From a candidate division WOR-3 bacterium (GTDB lineage: Bacteria > Hydrothermota > Tepidihabitantia > SM23-42 > JAOAFX01), in assembly GCA_039802265.1 (NCBI GenBank), contig JBDRWI010000013.1, positions 1-40,487 on the forward strand: 40,487 bases of DNA, in the 5' to 3' direction. This document shows positions 465 to 31,488 of the stretch, piece after piece. The notes beneath the pieces are model-generated. The model searched no databases. It saw only the letters and a list, made by a program, of their open reading frames with translations, and was not told the DNA's origin. Made by a program: the position numbers and the translations under genes. The stretch's first letter is position 1; the number at the start of each line of letters is the position of its first letter.

Positions 465-558
465 GGAGGCGGATGGGTGCTGGTGTGCCTGACGGGCTTC
501 AAACCCGGTTGTCCTTCGAAAGGGGGACGGTAGGTTCGATTCCTACACGCCTCCGCCA
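465..558 (+). tRNA. selC: tRNA-Sec (anticodon UCA)
   Basis: 8/5 fold: GGAGGCGG/ACGCCTCC acceptor; 6-bp D stem with TGGT loop; anticodon loop CTTCAAA (TCA 499-501); long variable arm with GAAA loop; GTAGG-TTCGATT-CCTAC T arm; G discriminator plus encoded CCA; adjacent to selB/selA. Confidence 0.96.
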
Positions 559-2453
559 CCTGCAAGAATTCTTACCTCGCCACGTTTAATGGTAATTCCC
601 TTTGAGTCAAAATAGATTAGTAAGGGTAGGGCATATTTTCTTGTAGTGTTTATCAGGTCACGAAATTCACTGACCCTGATTGAGTTGTGTGTTTTTAAGT
701 ATTGAATCAACTTTTCTCTTGCCTCGGAAAACCTATCCTTATGGAAAAAAATTCCTTCGCCGATGTGGATTAAAATTCCTGTATCAATAAGATGGCGGTA
801 TGCCTTCTTGACCAGATCCGCTGAACCAATATTTTTTTCTAATAATTCCTCAAGCGTTGGTGGCATGAATCCAGCTGAGTAGAATATCTTTTCTAATCTA
901 TCCTTCATTTCCTTAAGTTCCCCGGATACCACAAACTTGAAGTCATAACGGCTCACCTTGCCATCTTCACTAATCTTTATTTTCTTTTCATTCAATAATC
1001 TATTCAGGGCAAAGTTAAAGAGAATATGGTCCATTTGACGGTCTATGGCACTGATTAGCTCAGTCTTGGCAATTCCGATATGGGTGGGATTATTCTGATG
1101 ATAAATATTTATTGCCTCAATTATTTTTGCTTCAAGTCTGTCAAGATTTCTCTTACTGTAGTATAGATTTCTTCTTTCATCAACAATTAGCGCTAAATTC
1201 TTCGTTACAAGTTCACCAATCAATGTTTGAACAGTTTCTGGAGGTAAATTGACATCCCGGGCAATCTCTTCAATCTTTTGGGGCAGGGTGAAATTGGAGT
1301 TGAGGTCTTCTTCAACCAGAACAATCGGGTCCTGCGTCTCAATCTTTTTCAGGTGTTCAAGGAGTTGCTCATCAAATTCCTTTATCTTCTTTGCCTTTGG
1401 TTCAAGAATAACCCCGCCCCCGATTGTTATCTGGGGTGAATATGTCCTTACTACATAACGGTCGCCAATATCGGATACTGCAGGTGTCTCAAGACGAAAT
1501 TGCACCATACCCTTTTCTCCCGGTTCCAAAATCTTTTTTTCCAAGATCACGACCCGCCCTAAAATTTCAGCGGTGCCCAGATGGATTCTCAATCGGGTAA
1601 AGGTCTTTAAAGGTGGGGAAGAACTTAAAAGATACAAACTGGCATTCATATATAGAGATGGTTCAAGATAACCCGGGGTGGCAATTACATTTCCCCTTTC
1701 AATCTCCTCTTTTTCTACCCCGATGATATTTACTGCTGCCCGATAACCGGTGCCAACTTCAATGACCTCCTTATTATGCACCTCAATCCTTCTTACCTTT
1801 AGGTGTTTCTTCTGTGGCAACAACTCAACTGTATCACCAACCTTCACTTTCCCCGAAAGGATAGTCCCGGCAATCACCGTGCCAAAACCCTTCATTGTGA
1901 AACAGCGATCAATGGGCATTCTGAATATCCCTTTATCCATTTTGGGTTCGAGCTGGGAGATAAGTTCGTTAAGGATACGCTTTAATTCATCCATTCCTTC
2001 ACCGGTTAGGTTAGAAACGGCAACAATTGGTGCATCCTTTAGAAAAGAATCTTTGGTAAGCTGGTTTATATCATCAATCACAAGTTCAAGTTGCTCTTTA
2101 TTGACAAGGTCTTTCTTCGTCACAACAATCACACCCTTTTTTACATCCAATAATTTTAAAATCTCAAAATGTTCAACAGTCTGGGGCATTACACCATCAT
2201 CTGCAGCAACGACGAATATCACAAAATCTATGGTGCTTGCACCGGCAAGCATATGCCGGACAAACTTCTCATGCCCGGGCACATCAATAATCGTTACATC
2301 ATCACCATAGAAGGCAAACCCCAGGTCTGTTGTCATTCCCCGCTCTTTTTCTTCTTTTAGACGGTCCGGGTCATAACCGGTCAAAGACTTTATGAGTGCG
2401 CTCTTACCATGGTCAATATGCCCGGCAGTTCCCACGACGATATGTCTTGCCAT
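543..2453 (-). CDS. selB: selenocysteine-specific translation elongation factor SelB
   Basis: GTAGHIDHGKS, DRLKEEKERGMT, DVPGHEKFV, IDRCFTMKGFGTV; C-terminal winged helix with TRKYALPLL; next to selA. Confidence 0.97.
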   Translation of the reverse strand: MARHIVVGTAGHIDHGKSALIKSLTGYDPDRLKEEKERGMTTDLGFAFYGDDVTIIDVPGHEKFVRHMLAGASTIDFVIFVVAADDGVMPQTVEHFEILKLLDVKKGVIVVTKKDLVNKEQLELVIDDINQLTKDSFLKDAPIVAVSNLTGEGMDELKRILNELISQLEPKMDKGIFRMPIDRCFTMKGFGTVIAGTILSGKVKVGDTVELLPQKKHLKVRRIEVHNKEVIEVGTGYRAAVNIIGVEKEEIERGNVIATPGYLEPSLYMNASLYLLSSSPPLKTFTRLRIHLGTAEILGRVVILEKKILEPGEKGMVQFRLETPAVSDIGDRYVVRTYSPQITIGGGVILEPKAKKIKEFDEQLLEHLKKIETQDPIVLVEEDLNSNFTLPQKIEEIARDVNLPPETVQTLIGELVTKNLALIVDERRNLYYSKRNLDRLEAKIIEAINIYHQNNPTHIGIAKTELISAIDRQMDHILFNFALNRLLNEKKIKISEDGKVSRYDFKFVVSGELKEMKDRLEKIFYSAGFMPPTLEELLEKNIGSADLVKKAYRHLIDTGILIHIGEGIFFHKDRFSEAREKLIQYLKTHNSIRVSEFRDLINTTRKYALPLLIYFDSKGITIKRGEVRILAGGGGV

Positions 2454-2454
2454 C

Positions 2455-3837
2455 TTAATCTCTCAGTATCTCATTCAATGCCCGAGCAATTATCTTTTCT
2501 TCACCCTTTAATACAGTGCGAAAGTCAAGAATTAAAGTGTCTTTTTCAATCCGACCAAAGATGGGGGGCTGGTATAGTCTCAACTCCCTTGCCAGTCTTT
2601 CTACCGGTATATTTTTCGGTCTGATTTCAAGGACATAGGTTGGTAATTCTTCAGTGCTTAAAGACCCCCCTCCTATTTCCGAAACCGATTCTCTGATTGT
2701 CCATTTTATTTTATCTTGCTTATTTAGTGCCCGGACACAATTCTTTGCCTGCCTTTTAATCAAATCTAAGGGTTTCAAGAGTATTGAGATTACACTATGC
2801 TCTTTGATTATCTGTTCTTCGTTCTTTAAGAATAGACAGAGGGTTGCCTCAAGTGCCGCACTGGTCAGTTTATCACAGCGCAATGCCCTATTAAGGGGAT
2901 TCTTTTTGATTTTCTCAATATATTCTTTCCTACCAATTATTATACCACACTGTGGTCCACCGATAAGTTTATCACCGCTGAAGCAGACAATATCAGCACC
3001 ACGTTCTACACTCTCCTGAACCAGAGGTTCCTTGGGAAGACCATATTTTGAGAAGTCGATAAGGGCACCGCTCCCAAGGTCATCAATCACCACAAGGTTA
3101 TATTTTCTGCCCAGTTCCACGAGTTCCTCCAGAGGCACATCTTTTGTAAAACCTGATATCCGGTAGTTTGACTGGTGGACCCTCATAATCGCTGCAGTCT
3201 TTTCCGATATTGCCGATTCATAATCCCGCAAGTGAGTGCGATTTGTTGTACCTACTTCATGTAGTATTGCCCCGCTCTGTGCCATTACCTCCGGAATTCT
3301 GAATGAACCACCAATCTCAATCAACTGACCGCGGGAGACGATAACCTCTTTACCACAGGCAACGGTATTCAATATAAGAAGAGTTGCCGCGGCATTGTTA
3401 TTGACGATCATTCCTGCCTCAGCACCGGTAATGATCTTGAGGAGTTTACTTATCTTTTTATAACGGTCTGCTCGCCTTCCTTCTTCATCAATCTGAAGCC
3501 GGGAATAGCCAATTGCCACTGAATTTAAAGCCTCCACCACCTTCCTTGAAAATGGTGCCCGGCCCAATCCGGTATGGAGCACAATCCCCAGACCGTTGAT
3601 TGCATAGGTAAAATATGGCGTTGTTAATTCATTCAACTCATTCACTATATTTTTCAGAAGTTGCTGGGGACTCATTTCTTCTCCGTCAGTCAACCTTTTT
3701 CTGAATTCTTCAACCTCATAACGTACAACTGTAGTAATGTAATTACGGTCCATTCTTTCAAAAAATATCTTTAAATCCGGAGAATTGAGGAGATGCTCTA
3801 CCGAAGGTATCGTCCTTAAAATATCTTCGCGGGCCAT
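2455..3837 (-). CDS. selA: L-seryl-tRNA(Sec) selenium transferase SelA
   Basis: LHTGLGRAP, VNNNAAA, SRGQLIEIGGSFRIP, EVGTTNRTH, FSGDKLIGGPQ (PLP lysine). ATG 3837 preferred over TTG 3843, which overlaps the -10 box. Confidence 0.96.
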   Translation of the reverse strand: MAREDILRTIPSVEHLLNSPDLKIFFERMDRNYITTVVRYEVEEFRKRLTDGEEMSPQQLLKNIVNELNELTTPYFTYAINGLGIVLHTGLGRAPFSRKVVEALNSVAIGYSRLQIDEEGRRADRYKKISKLLKIITGAEAGMIVNNNAAATLLILNTVACGKEVIVSRGQLIEIGGSFRIPEVMAQSGAILHEVGTTNRTHLRDYESAISEKTAAIMRVHQSNYRISGFTKDVPLEELVELGRKYNLVVIDDLGSGALIDFSKYGLPKEPLVQESVERGADIVCFSGDKLIGGPQCGIIIGRKEYIEKIKKNPLNRALRCDKLTSAALEATLCLFLKNEEQIIKEHSVISILLKPLDLIKRQAKNCVRALNKQDKIKWTIRESVSEIGGGSLSTEELPTYVLEIRPKNIPVERLARELRLYQPPIFGRIEKDTLILDFRTVLKGEEKIIARALNEILRD

Positions 3838-3842
3838 CGTCA

Positions 3843-3870
3843 ATTATAGTAAATTAAAGATAAAAGTCAA
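3843..3870 (-). promoter_or_regulatory. sigma70-type promoter of selAB (probably leaderless mRNA)
   Basis: TTGACT, 16 bp, TATAAT, 5 nt, ATG; no Shine-Dalgarno. Confidence 0.7.
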
Positions 3871-26856: not shown

Positions 26857-29052
26857 ATGAACCTTATCAGTGTGTTTTTAATATTCAGCGCGTTTATGCC
26901 CGGTCCGTTTAAAACGATTCGGGCTCTCCAGAAAGAATATTATGCTCCAGAATATGTGAATAAAAAAACCGCAGATTTTAATCCCTGGACTTGGAATCTG
27001 GTTAATCTACCCGGTGGTGAAATCCTCGGCACATTCAGCAATCCCAATTCACAAAACCTTGTATTCGCCATTTCTTTTCGTGATGTCTGGCGCACGACCG
27101 ATGGTGGCGCAAACTGGGGTCTGTCATTCGAAAACTGTATGCCTGCTGGGGGTGTGTTGTCAACACCCCAGAGAGGAATCGTGGTTGATGGTGGCGGAGT
27201 AGTCTGGATAACCTTGAATAGTGGAAATGACTGGGCAGAGGTCTTATACACCAACGATTTTCAGACTGCAAGTTTTGATGTTGCGGATACGGTAATCTAT
27301 CTTGTTGACAGTATTCCCCCAAGGCTCTGGCGGAGCACAAATTCAGGATTATCCTGGCAGTTTCTCGGCACATTTAATAATCTCTATAACATTGACCAAA
27401 TTACCCATCTCAAGAGTAATCCTGATGTATTCTGGCTTACGGGGCACGCATCGCCTGTAGATTCGTTTACTTATGTATATTTTTCGCCGTCCGGTACATT
27501 TGTGGATACAATCGTTGCAGGTGAGGTTATGGATATCCAGCCCAATCCCTATAATCCCAATCTTGTACTAATTGCTACTGACAACGGAATATACCAGTCA
27601 ACATCAGCCTCAGGTCCCTGGACAAGAATAAATGAACCTTATGTATTTGGAATATTCCAAGCAGTGGATATTGAGTTCACGGGCAACGATACAATTCTTG
27701 TTTCAAGTTTTATCAACCCAGGAATATTCCGGGGTGTAAGACAGTACGGAATCTGGATTTTCAACTATGTTGAATCAAGGGAAATTGCAACCTTAATAAG
27801 TCATGCGGGCTCAGGGACATTCTATGCCGGCAGCCTTGGAAAAGGTGTATTTAAGACGACCAATAATGGTCTATCCTGGACCGTCCAGAGGAACAATCTT
27901 TATGCCCATACAATTATCAGTCCTGGTGCCGCAAGTTGTCCTTCACTGGATACAGTCGTTTATGCCATCGGCCTTGGTGGAACCATATATCGCATCAAAA
28001 ATTATGGTACATCCTTTGATACATTGATGAACTTCCTCTTGATGGGTTCGGCAATAGAATCCGCGCCAACAAATCCGAATTTTATCATCGCATCCTGCAT
28101 CCATATGGAGATTTCCGGAACAACATTCTCAATGGGCACAATATTTACCTCTTCAGATGGCGGTGTAAACTGGACAAAGGTGGATTCTACATATTTGCCT
28201 ACAGATTTTCTGATTACAAGTGACCCAAATGTTATCATTGGCCTTTGTGATACATTCCTGATTCGCTCTACTACTGGCGGGACAAACTTCACACCCGTAT
28301 TTGCAAAGCCTGTATCCCTTTCCAATCTTGCAGGGCGTGATACAATATTTGTAGCAACCTATGATTCAGTCTTTGTTAGTTACGACCGCGGTGCAACCTG
28401 GCAATTCTTGACGATTGACCCAGGTCAGGAGACCGATGAAATCTCGTATGACAACAATCAAAAAATCCTCTATCTCACCGATATCCCACTTTACCGCTAC
28501 TATCTATTAACTGGCACCCTGGATAGTATAGCGATTAATGGCTATGCCAATTTTTCTACTGATGTCGCCCCAAATGGCAATCTATATTTCCTCTATTATG
28601 GTACGGATACTATCTATATTGCACGTTCATTTGATACCGGCAACACAATTGAACAGGAACCATTCCCCATCCCCCATTTCTTTGGTGGTTTACTTGCCTG
28701 TAATGGTGCATTATTCTATTACGAAGGTGGCAGGAGATTCTGGGTGAGCACCGATATTACGCATGGAGTTGCTGAAAACATAATAAGAGAAAATAAATTC
28801 TCCTTCTTTATTCCCACGCTCGTCAAGAAAAATTCGCTGGCGAAGATTTCCTTCGCGATAGACCATTCGCGCACTTGTTCAATAAAATTATATGATGGAA
28901 CCGGACGTCTGGTTAAGAATATCTATGAGGCAGATTTCGCCCCTGGAATCTATAATCTTGAATTCAGCACTAAAGGATTAAATAGCGGGGTATATTTTGT
29001 TAGGCTGAATAGCGAGCAAGAACAGAGAACAAGAAAATTTATAGTCTATTAA
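26857..29052 (+). CDS. secreted BNR/Asp-box beta-propeller protein with T9SS type A-like C-terminal sorting domain
   Basis: signal peptide; RTTDGGANW, RSTNSGLSW, KTTNNGLSW, SSDGGVNW, SYDRGATW; C-terminal LYDGTGRLV..LNSGVYFVRL..RKFIVY. Confidence 0.88.
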   Translation: MNLISVFLIFSAFMPGPFKTIRALQKEYYAPEYVNKKTADFNPWTWNLVNLPGGEILGTFSNPNSQNLVFAISFRDVWRTTDGGANWGLSFENCMPAGGVLSTPQRGIVVDGGGVVWITLNSGNDWAEVLYTNDFQTASFDVADTVIYLVDSIPPRLWRSTNSGLSWQFLGTFNNLYNIDQITHLKSNPDVFWLTGHASPVDSFTYVYFSPSGTFVDTIVAGEVMDIQPNPYNPNLVLIATDNGIYQSTSASGPWTRINEPYVFGIFQAVDIEFTGNDTILVSSFINPGIFRGVRQYGIWIFNYVESREIATLISHAGSGTFYAGSLGKGVFKTTNNGLSWTVQRNNLYAHTIISPGAASCPSLDTVVYAIGLGGTIYRIKNYGTSFDTLMNFLLMGSAIESAPTNPNFIIASCIHMEISGTTFSMGTIFTSSDGGVNWTKVDSTYLPTDFLITSDPNVIIGLCDTFLIRSTTGGTNFTPVFAKPVSLSNLAGRDTIFVATYDSVFVSYDRGATWQFLTIDPGQETDEISYDNNQKILYLTDIPLYRYYLLTGTLDSIAINGYANFSTDVAPNGNLYFLYYGTDTIYIARSFDTGNTIEQEPFPIPHFFGGLLACNGALFYYEGGRRFWVSTDITHGVAENIIRENKFSFFIPTLVKKNSLAKISFAIDHSRTCSIKLYDGTGRLVKNIYEADFAPGIYNLEFSTKGLNSGVYFVRLNSEQEQRTRKFIVY

Positions 29053-29235
29053 AATTCCCCGCTTTGTAATAGAAGAAATTCTAGTTCTCCCTCCACTTAC
29101 GAAGTTGTAGATAAGGATATTCTTTTACCACTGGCAATAAATATATAATCCTTGTCAAGGGCAATTTTTCAGACAACTTAAGTCTTGACAAAACTGATGT
29201 CTTGAATATTAATATAGTATCTGAAAGGGGGTGCG

Positions 29236-31488
29236 ATGAGACTCATTTTTCTTCTCATAGCAGTAACTCTTACTGCCTCATTATATGCAGACTGGCAGTC
29301 AATCTGCCCTCCGGGTGGTAATATGAATGTAATAGCTATCTCACCGACTGACGATAACCTTGTTTACGCTGCATCCTACTCTTACCCAACACGGATATTC
29401 AAATCTACAAACAAAGGAGTATCTTGGAGTGAAGTAGGTTCGTTCAATAGCTATTGCTATGCTATGACGGTAAGTCAATCTGGAGTCATATTTGCAGGTT
29501 ATTACGGATATATCTATAAATCCACAGATGGTGGAAATACCTGGACACAGTCATCATCTTTGGGAAGCACAGGGATATACGACCTGGAGGCACATCCCAC
29601 TGATGCCAATACAATCTATGGCTGCGGTTACCGATATATCAGTTCAGGGAATTATGCAATAGTCTTCATAAAAACAACCAATGCAGGAAATAACTGGACT
29701 ACCCTTGACATATACAGCGGCGGATATTCTTATGGTTATGGTATCGGAGTGGACCGCAACAATCCAAATGTCATTTTTATCGGTGGTAATGGTTACTCAA
29801 CTACTTATGAACCAAAAATATTCAAATCTACCAATGGCGGGTTAAGTTTTACTGAAGTCTATTCCTCAACAACTGGCTACTATGTCTATGATGTTGCAGT
29901 CAATCCTGGTAATTCAAATATTGTCTATGCCTGTACATATTATGATGGAATATACCGCTCAACCAATGCCGGAACGGATTGGACAAAGGTATCATCCTCA
30001 TACTACAATTATCGTCTTGGAACTACTCCAGCAAATGCCAATTATGTCTATTGCTCTGGATATTACTACTTTTATCGCAGTACTGATGCAGGCGCCACCT
30101 GGAGCGACTTAACATCCGGGCTCCCCTCTTACTATCACTGGGGTCTGGCGGTGAGCCGAACCAACCATCTGGAAGTCCTGATTGCCAATAGGGCTGGAGT
30201 CTTCAAAACAACAAGTGGTGGAACAACCTGGTCATTAAGCAGTGATGGCATTTATCTCGGATTACCAGTTGTTGCTGCCACCGCTGCACCTTCATTACCT
30301 ACCACCGTCTATATCCAGGTTGAGGATGTCGGTGTATACAAGACGACAAATTGTGGTAACAGCTGGATTATCTGCCCTTCATTCTCAAGTTGCGGAGATA
30401 TGTGTGCGATTGCGGTTAAATACACCGACCCCAACTATGTAATGGCGATCGAAGGTATGGGTTGAGGGACTGCCCAAGCTTATAAAAGCACAGACGGCGG
30501 GTCCGTCTGGTCATTGGCCGACCCTGGTTATTATGATACTGGTGGGGATATAGTTGCAGACCCCTTTAGCACCAATACATTCTGGAGTTGCGGTAATTAT
30601 TTGAACGGTTCGATCTATATAATGGCCGCATCAAAGACTACCGACAATGGAACAAATTGGACCAGGTATAATCTTGCCACTGGTGCCGGAATGGCGCATA
30701 CGCTTGCAATTGACCCAACGAATTCCAGTATAGTCTATGTGGGTGGGAATGAGAATAGTTTATCTGCGATATATAAAACCACCAATGCCGGATACAACTG
30801 GGCAAAGCTTCCTGCCACCGGTCTGGGTGATACTGTGGTCCTGGCACTGGCGATCGACCCTTCTTATCCAAATACAATATATGCCGGCACAAACAATGGT
30901 TGTTATAAATCAACCGATGGTGGTAATAACTGGGTAAATACCGGGTGCCCTGGTGGCTGGGTCAATGCCATCGTCGTTAACCGAGGGTCTTCTGTCTATG
31001 AAGGTGTATATGTTGGCACTAATTCCAATGGCGTATATTTGAGCACAAACTGGGGAACATCCTGGACACAGATAAATCAGGGTTTACAGGATCTCCAGGT
31101 CAATTGTCTTGGTAAAAGTCAGGCCACCTATATTTATGCGGGTACCCAGACTAAAGGTATTTATCGCTGGTCAGTTCAGGTAGGTAATGAAGAAGTAGAT
31201 AATAATTTTACAACTAAGGATAATAGACTGATTATTAAACCCAATCCTGCTCGCGGCGAATTGAAAATTTCATACCAGGTACACAAGTCAACAAATGTCC
31301 TTCTTGGTATTTACGATACCCAGGGAAGATTGATACGGATATTAAAAGATGAATACCACCCTGCAGGTACATACTCTCTATTTTGGGATTTCGATAATAT
31401 GAGCAAAGAAATTCCAGCAGGGATATATTTCTGTAGATTGCATACTGAGAATTTCAATATCTGGAAACGGTTTATTGTAGTAAAATAG
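29236..31488 (+). CDS. secreted BNR/Asp-box beta-propeller protein with T9SS/FlgD-like C-terminal domain, containing one in-frame TGA (codon 410; putative selenocysteine)
   Basis: ORFs 29236-30465 and 30514-31488 share a frame (offset 1278 = 426 codons). The sequence after TGA reads GTAQAYKSTDGGSVWSL, an intact BNR repeat. Signal peptide only in the 5' part, sorting domain only in the 3' part; SECIS-like hairpin; selABC in window. Confidence 0.75.
30491..30509 (+). promoter_or_regulatory. putative bacterial SECIS hairpin
   Basis: CAGACGG-CGGGT-CCGTCTG: 7 perfect bp, G-rich loop, 32 nt between the UGA and the loop. Confidence 0.6.

Follow-up and report, generated by a model that had tools for sequence, protein, structure and literature searches.

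The window analysed here, 40,487 nucleotides of contig JBDRWI010000013.1 (assembly GCA_039802265.1) from a candidate division WOR-3 bacterium, carries genes of the selenocysteine (Sec) machinery together with a gene for an Asp-box propeller protein that contains an in-frame UGA codon. The features discussed are as follows, plus-sign positions being counted from the first nucleotide after the UGA.

465..554 (to 558), forward strand: tRNA-Sec with anticodon UCA (RF01852, 76.9 bits, cut-off 47; ARAGORN)
543..2453, reverse strand: selB, with SECIS-binding winged-helix domains (TIGR00475, 349 bits; PF09106, PF09107)
2455..3843, reverse strand: selA, Sec synthase (TIGR00474, 556 bits)
29236..31488, forward strand: full propeller gene read through the UGA, encoding an N-terminal hydrophobic leader, 14 Asp-box blades and a T9SS type A-like C-terminal domain
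30391..30405, forward strand: motif C386-G-x-x-C390, likely partner of Sec (CG in 130/136 genes, CGxxC in 118/136)
30451..30453, forward strand: Glu406, four residues before Sec (135/136 genes; invariant in alignments A2 and A3)
30463..30465, forward strand: in-frame UGA for the predicted Sec410, on the top face (loop 2-3) of blade 9
30478..30489, forward strand: hairpin 1, GCUU-AUAA-AAGC, at +13..+24 (family consensus GCUC-N5-GAGC at +12..+24)
30491..30509, forward strand: hairpin 2, CAGACGG-CGGGU-CCGUCUG, at +26..+44, formed by the Asp-box codons for T-D-G-G-S-V-W

Reading the UGA as Sec joins the ORF at 29236-30465 to its downstream frame and yields one ORF of 750 amino acids, with domain matches to Sortilin-Vps10/Asp-box repeats and Por_Secre_tail. 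The product also matches NCBIfam NF045728 (F510_1955 family glycosylhydrolase) with a whole-protein score of 180.3 (cut-off 175), a score that is summed over four repeat stretches of a 246-position model and is silent on Sec or activity. Public annotation stops the protein at the UGA, so that homologues, whose source labels read candidate division WOR-3, appear as 408-residue hypothetical proteins; gene callers split members of the propeller family in two at this codon. Ended there, the product of the present gene would have 409 amino acids and, by the structural model, would stop inside blade 9. The upstream neighbour (26857-29052, forward strand) is another Asp-box protein with a T9SS-type tail and has no internal UGA. 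Three runs differ in sequence in the intergenic stretch at 29168-29185, upstream of the propeller gene, and one contig has a single-base deletion at 30418; either may be strain variation or error. At the TGA itself no alternative letter was found in the contigs of four runs from two studies that cover the site and, because these agree, the codon is not an assembly error.

A 150-residue query against 271 genomes of the phylum gave matches in 75. For six of these none of the matches listed bore a TGA, the matches being weak repeats in five and in one a fragment in which the site is unread (only the 3' half of the gene is present, and this genome was excluded from all counts), which leaves a UGA-bearing gene in 69 of the 271 WOR-3 genomes. 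We retrieved 130 loci, covering most of the matches listed. Among 151 alignments extending over the site, 137 had TGA, nine were to other blades of the same proteins, one was to an outgroup propeller and four had gaps; TGA is thus found in 137/137 alignments to the orthologous site, from 136 distinct genes. Furthermore, a DNA pattern that left the codon free gave 115 matches in 60 genomes with TGA in every one, a pattern that includes the hairpin codons and that hairpin-less Cys forms could escape. The frame is open past the UGA in 136 genes, down to 28% identity among full-length ones, and in these genes we found no conserved restart after the UGA and a Shine-Dalgarno-like sequence in only 3. 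A metagenome scan that demanded TGA, and that therefore shows abundance and is no test of other codons, returned 119 stretches, with the upstream motif in 116 and the other three cut short. The search of genome contigs for related loci returned just three distant Ignavibacteria repeats, and the ESM Atlas only generic Sortilin/BNR clusters. Propeller genes also occur in tandem on one contig (four copies on G110:C29, three on G133:C29 and three on G141:C4), each copy keeping the UGA and both hairpins; G110 has eight pattern matches. Wholesale reassignment of TGA in the genome was rejected as TGA stops 326 of 978 ORFs longer than 300 codons.

selA, selB and the tRNA-Sec gene share the window with the propeller gene, selD lies on a separate contig and has an in-frame TGA of its own, and selA, selB, selC and selD are all found in the genome. 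The tRNA-Sec and selB genes converge, and the former reaches into the final codons of selB, which lies on the other strand. We detected selA in 119 of the 271 genomes. It is present in 67 of the 69 carriers of the UGA propeller gene, and the other two (G122 and G220) have tRNA-Sec, together with selB in one and a TGA-bearing selD in the other. These two are the only carriers among the 152 genomes without a selA match, a comparison in which related genomes are not independent. Many genomes of family f14 also hold a second, divergent selD paralogue, with TGA in some and absent in others.

A preliminary description made from the window alone had placed a stem-loop at 30491-30509, just after the UGA. 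The stem-loop is present there (CAGACGG-CGGGT-CCGTCTG in the DNA), with its loop starting at 30498 after a 32-nt spacer, and both sister repeats quoted for comparison were found, Val standing here where they have Thr, Ser or Asn. The lower stem that had been suggested did not hold: the letters ccaa and ttgg exist, but their pairing is absent from the minimum free energy (MFE) fold, and only 32.6% of cells pair among 128 homologues. The MFE of hairpin 2 alone is -9.3 kcal/mol and reaches -13.7 with hairpin 1. Fold z-scores were -1.27 for 30455-30540, -1.71 for 30466-30517 and -3.37 for 30475-30512 (0/200 shuffles reach the latter), so the fold signal on the single sequence is modest. In single-sequence ensembles the mean pairing probability of hairpin 2 was 0.49 when folding began at +1 and 0.78 from +10, as a rival pairing no longer competes once the first nine nucleotides are masked, as they would be by the ribosome. 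A long stem between +5..+9 and +31..+35 reached a mean probability of 0.30 but was rejected because its 5' side varies freely. A minus-strand terminator at hairpin 2 was likewise discarded, its terminator-like score (three found, 2.0 expected) being taken as a by-product of the symmetry.

Hairpin 1 was absent from the first reading. It is paired in 93.4% of cells across the family and has a mean pairing probability of 0.83-0.87 in single-sequence ensembles. Six genes, this one included, form its four pairs one base out of the usual register and have Ala in place of Leu; in one gene GGC and TCC codons restore the pairing. Independent compensatory events in this hairpin are few, and it could be a sequence motif rather than a structure.

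The codons after the UGA had been proposed to be selected for RNA structure, and controls within the family, fixed synonymous codons and compensatory changes bear this out. Among the Asp-boxes of one and the same set of genes, all six pairs of hairpin 2 are formed in 112/124 that adjoin the UGA compared to 1/1441 sister boxes, and Val precedes the Trp in 113/124 compared to 10/1441. When the proteins were held fixed and recoded with each gene's own codon usage, both hairpins were seen in 116/129 genes against 2.0 expected. Synonymous recoding of the window protein alone produced hairpin 2 in 20% of draws and the two hairpins together in 1%. Near-fixed codons extend from +4 to +14 (CTC 129/129, AGC 134/136, GAG 116/118, GAC 117/119, GTC 115/119), with a family-wide usage of 0.15-0.6; those from -7 to +2 are mostly not near-fixed.

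Covariation across homologues, suggested earlier as a check, pointed the same way. In alignment A1 (128 rows), 94.1% of cells pair, a value matched by 0/500 shuffles and compared to 25-46% in slid controls, and 8/12 pairs show two-sided change. For hairpin 2, 94.6% of cells are paired and 4/7 pairs changed on both sides; among 129 distinct +1..+66 sequences, six of its pairs survive in 118-128 and the remaining one in 100. On a tree of 127/136 genes built without these codons, 9/10 parsimony events at pair +28/+42 involve both of its sides, and protein covariation does not explain this, because a change is non-synonymous at one of the two and falls mostly on a third position at the other. Eight loci retrieved later (seven new genes and one repeat) all had 4/4 and 6/6 pairs, and a UGA-less outgroup gene had 2/4 and 3/6. 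RNAalifold, unaided, recovered three pairs of hairpin 2 and no more. The loop has GG in 129/129 sequences, which is no evidence in itself because the Asp-box glycine codon also demands GG. Outside both stems, codon +16 after the Trp (30511-30513) is ACA in 62/66 Thr cases against a usage of 0.18, perhaps a further RNA constraint.

As given in passages of PMC13188914, the model of bacterial SECIS elements has an apical loop of 3-9 nt, an upper stem of 4-16 bp, a G at loop position 1 or 2 (N1-G-[G/U]-N-N2), a UGA-to-loop distance of 16-37 nt and an MFE of -7.5 kcal/mol or lower. Set against the four constraints in those passages, the propeller element has a 5-nt loop C-G-G-G-U, a 7-bp stem, a distance of 32 nt and -9.3 kcal/mol, all within range. 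We hold with high confidence that the hairpin is a genuine selenocysteine-insertion signal. At UGA410, SelB-GTP-Sec-tRNA bound to the GG loop of hairpin 2 would deliver Sec, and translation would then proceed through the second propeller and the C-terminal export domain. From the gene content and the conserved RNA pattern, SelB-dependent insertion at UGA410 is very probable, and nearly as probable is the fuller reading, in which an Asp-box repeat of a secreted propeller selenoprotein encodes a bacterial SECIS made up of two hairpins.

The genome and its relatives hold other Sec candidates, listed here with the positions of the propeller gene pairs.

G000:C28:16941-17240 (L343) and G000:C2:7963-8229 (L332): C-U family in this genome
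G114:C104, G115:C18, G118:C22, G119:C7, G121:C23, G122:C20, G123:C9 and G124:C90: C-U gene paired with propeller gene
L328:475-1500, L329:422-1477, L330:237-2018 and L331:102-818: Omp28-like candidates
L333:229-1578 (G000:C95): secreted C-U-S-C candidate with propeller-like repeats and a T9SS-type tail

The C-U family is a second apparently uncatalogued secreted Sec family, in which a CBM4/9-like domain ends with the C-U motif and a T9SS-type tail is present. It occurs in 97/131 genomes of the class, with an in-frame TGA in all matches listed but one and a single hairpin whose GGUC loop lies at +21. Eight genomes, all from a single genus, have the C-U gene on the propeller gene's strand and about 2.7 kb upstream of it, and the pair is likely a two-selenoprotein operon. 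The four Omp28-like candidates are secreted UxxC proteins, three of which match NF045500 weakly, far below cut-off.

A comparison of the hairpin with the SECIS candidates after UGA in the genome's other Sec genes, also suggested earlier, placed their G-loops at +21 to +24 and that of the propeller gene at +33. In detail, the loop of the SelD element is at +23 in 29/30 loci listed, that of the C-U family at +21 in 19/20 listed, and those of three Omp28-like genes at +23, +23 and +24, so that the propeller loop lies about 10-12 nt beyond the SelD and C-U elements. In E. coli fdhF, the upper stem starts about 11 nt after the UGA. The Asp-box Gly-Gly codons would force the loop to +33; hairpin 1 would fold 13 nt at the edge of the ribosome, remove about 10 nt of effective spacer length and thereby put the loop where the +21 to +24 loops sit. 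We give even odds to this shortening of the spacer by hairpin 1. The main alternative, at about half that weight, is that hairpin 1 acts as a pause element, a role that is also plausible because, in passages of PMC7026636, the arriving ribosome unwinds the lower portion of a SECIS and insertion is about 40% efficient in E. coli.

AlphaFold2, run on an input alignment of 26 of the 102 available sequences, gave a mean pLDDT of 90.7 and a pTM of 0.79 for a structure with 14 blades, in two 7-bladed propellers, and a C-terminal beta domain. Sec410 lies in the model on a top-face loop between strands 2 and 3 of blade 9; in Asp-box glycosidases, according to passages of PMC2716378, catalytic and binding residues lie in loop 2-3 of the top face. 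The first Cys is 22-25 residues from Sec. Cys386 precedes strand 1 of blade 9 in the model. By general propeller topology, we take its loop to be on the top face as well. We lean slightly towards a redox role for the top face of propeller 2 in a surface-exported protein, where Sec410 and Cys386 would form a selenenyl-sulfide pair helped by Glu406 and Cys390. The next reading, a Sec/Cys/Cys/Glu metal site, appears rather doubtful. Regarding export, the C-terminal tail scores above cut-off with both PF18962 (33.9 bits) and TIGR04183 (29.1 bits), as do SprA and PorV genes in the genome; an N-terminal signal (judged by eye), a sorting domain and secretion genes, the marks of T9SS type A cargo, are thus all present, and the SprA and PorV genes support the predicted export of the propeller protein. 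With 15 PorV-family places (10 loci above cut-off) and some 90 matches resembling the T9SS tail, the genome has a large T9SS-like secretome.

In P0166, a cluster of four sequences 44% identical to the closest family member, Sec is replaced by Leu or Pro, both Cys residues by Asp and the Val by Ser. P0166 is nested among Sec members (support of the enclosing clades, 0.997 and 0.914); a search of 131 genomes of the class did not turn up its DNA. Since P0166 lost all of these together, in what is one event, the Cys residues appear linked to Sec, and the Val appears linked to the RNA. Cys is absent from these places in the nearest outgroup propellers. No Cys form of the Sec site was found in the 271 genomes, by alignments or by the codon-free pattern, and no full-length Cys form among the matches listed (the best 120-150, crowded by generic repeats); the usual Sec/Cys support is therefore lacking.

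Other explanations of the locus were weighed against Sec insertion at hairpin 2. SelB-independent read-through, in which the hairpins slow termination and a near-cognate Trp or Cys tRNA decodes the UGA at a low rate to give short and long isoforms, could draw on a hairpin that begins at +12 and might pause the ribosome, on a loop more distant from the UGA than those of the genome's remaining SECIS candidates, and on the failure to find a Cys form among the matches listed. Yet the codon-free pattern returned neither TAG nor TAA, every carrier has Sec genes, the short product would break off within a blade, and P0166 gave up both Cys residues along with the Sec codon; we regard this explanation as very unlikely. 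Slightly less probable still is that Sec is inserted with SelB bound to hairpin 1, hairpin 2 being an accessory for stability or pausing. Hairpin 1 starts at +12 with a loop at about +16, inside the 16-37 nt range, and has the higher mean pairing probability and nearly fixed codons, but its loop varies freely and seldom has G in the first two places, and it is hairpin 2 that fits the N1-G-G-N-N2 loop pattern, N1 and N2 pairing (C-G, A-U, U-A or U-G) in 38/129 genes.

The least probable alternative, to which we give hardly any weight, is that two genes, a pseudogene or a sequencing error lie at the site and that the hairpin is a by-product of Asp-box codons. Public annotation does end the protein at the UGA, as do 44/115 further database proteins, and chance gave hairpin 2 in a fifth of the recodings of the window protein. 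This is opposed by a frame kept in distant members of the family, by the want of a conserved restart, by the agreement of four runs on the TGA and by the near absence of the hairpin from sister repeats. We therefore retain Sec insertion directed by hairpin 2. A broader reading, which we put forward tentatively and at somewhat less than even odds, is that these proteins may be a Sec-obligate family of cell-surface selenoenzymes with a GH74-like twin propeller and no Cys form, using a new two-hairpin class of SECIS in which the upstream hairpin would fold the spacer and the SelB loop would be borrowed from the repeat glycines, and that WOR-3 may have several uncatalogued families of secreted selenoproteins, this being one of them.

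In the open literature we found no paper that pairs WOR-3 with selenoproteins and none listed on this propeller family, subscription papers being outside this scope. None of the 119 families catalogued in Table 1 of PMC13188914 is named as a BNR/Asp-box propeller or has such a domain id. Passages of the BSepDB paper (PMC13326102), with the portion of its supplement searched, contain no WOR-3, BNR, propeller or T9SS, and main-text passages of bioRxiv 10.64898/2026.09.15.751765 do not mention WOR, while its supplements could hold such loci. Rfam SECIS models gave no match up to E 10 in the window region and up to E 5 in five homologous loci. Like the catalogued families, the propeller family combines a UGA, a SECIS and a nearby conserved Cys, but it has no CxxU motif. 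The nearest family in context is the Omp28-related NF045500, represented in this genome by the weakly matching UxxC proteins.

Structurally, the closest known proteins are the GH74 xyloglucanases, which share the tandem 7-bladed Asp-box propellers (best Foldseek E 4e-27, TM about 0.55) and are also the best PDB sequence matches (E 3e-40, identity 13-19%); VIA-align returned only generic 7-bladed propellers. The RTDxGG and GDxGG motifs of 4lgn, which we take to be the catalytic Asp motifs of GH74, are absent from the propeller family consensus (A2), a comparison made by motif as HMMER alignments were out of register. In their stead the family has the Sec/Cys/Cys/Glu cluster and the T9SS-type tail.

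The mechanism class is known; what is new is the two-hairpin form of the element, the fold and the lack of a Cys counterpart. These observations add a large selenoprotein family whose fold and location (an exported Asp-box propeller) go unnamed in the 2026 inventory; they also indicate the likely active site of proteins annotated as truncated hypotheticals. According to a passage of PMC12013277 (2025), every known selenoprotein seems to possess Cys homologues, a rule that the absent Cys form challenges; because no Cys form is detectable, pipelines based on Cys/Sec pairs would miss the family. Like the bacterial SECIS consensus of PMC13188914, whose prototype is that of E. coli fdhF and which is read by SelB, the propeller element lies in the coding region just 3' of an in-frame UGA, and its 5-nt loop with G second, its 7-bp stem and its 32-nt spacing agree with that consensus. 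In contrast to the one stem-loop of the consensus, the propeller element consists of two adjacent hairpins. It offers a natural case in which SelB would have to handle a loop far from the UGA, and in which a signal in the RNA reshapes a protein repeat, through its Val, its Leu and its AGC-encoded Ser.
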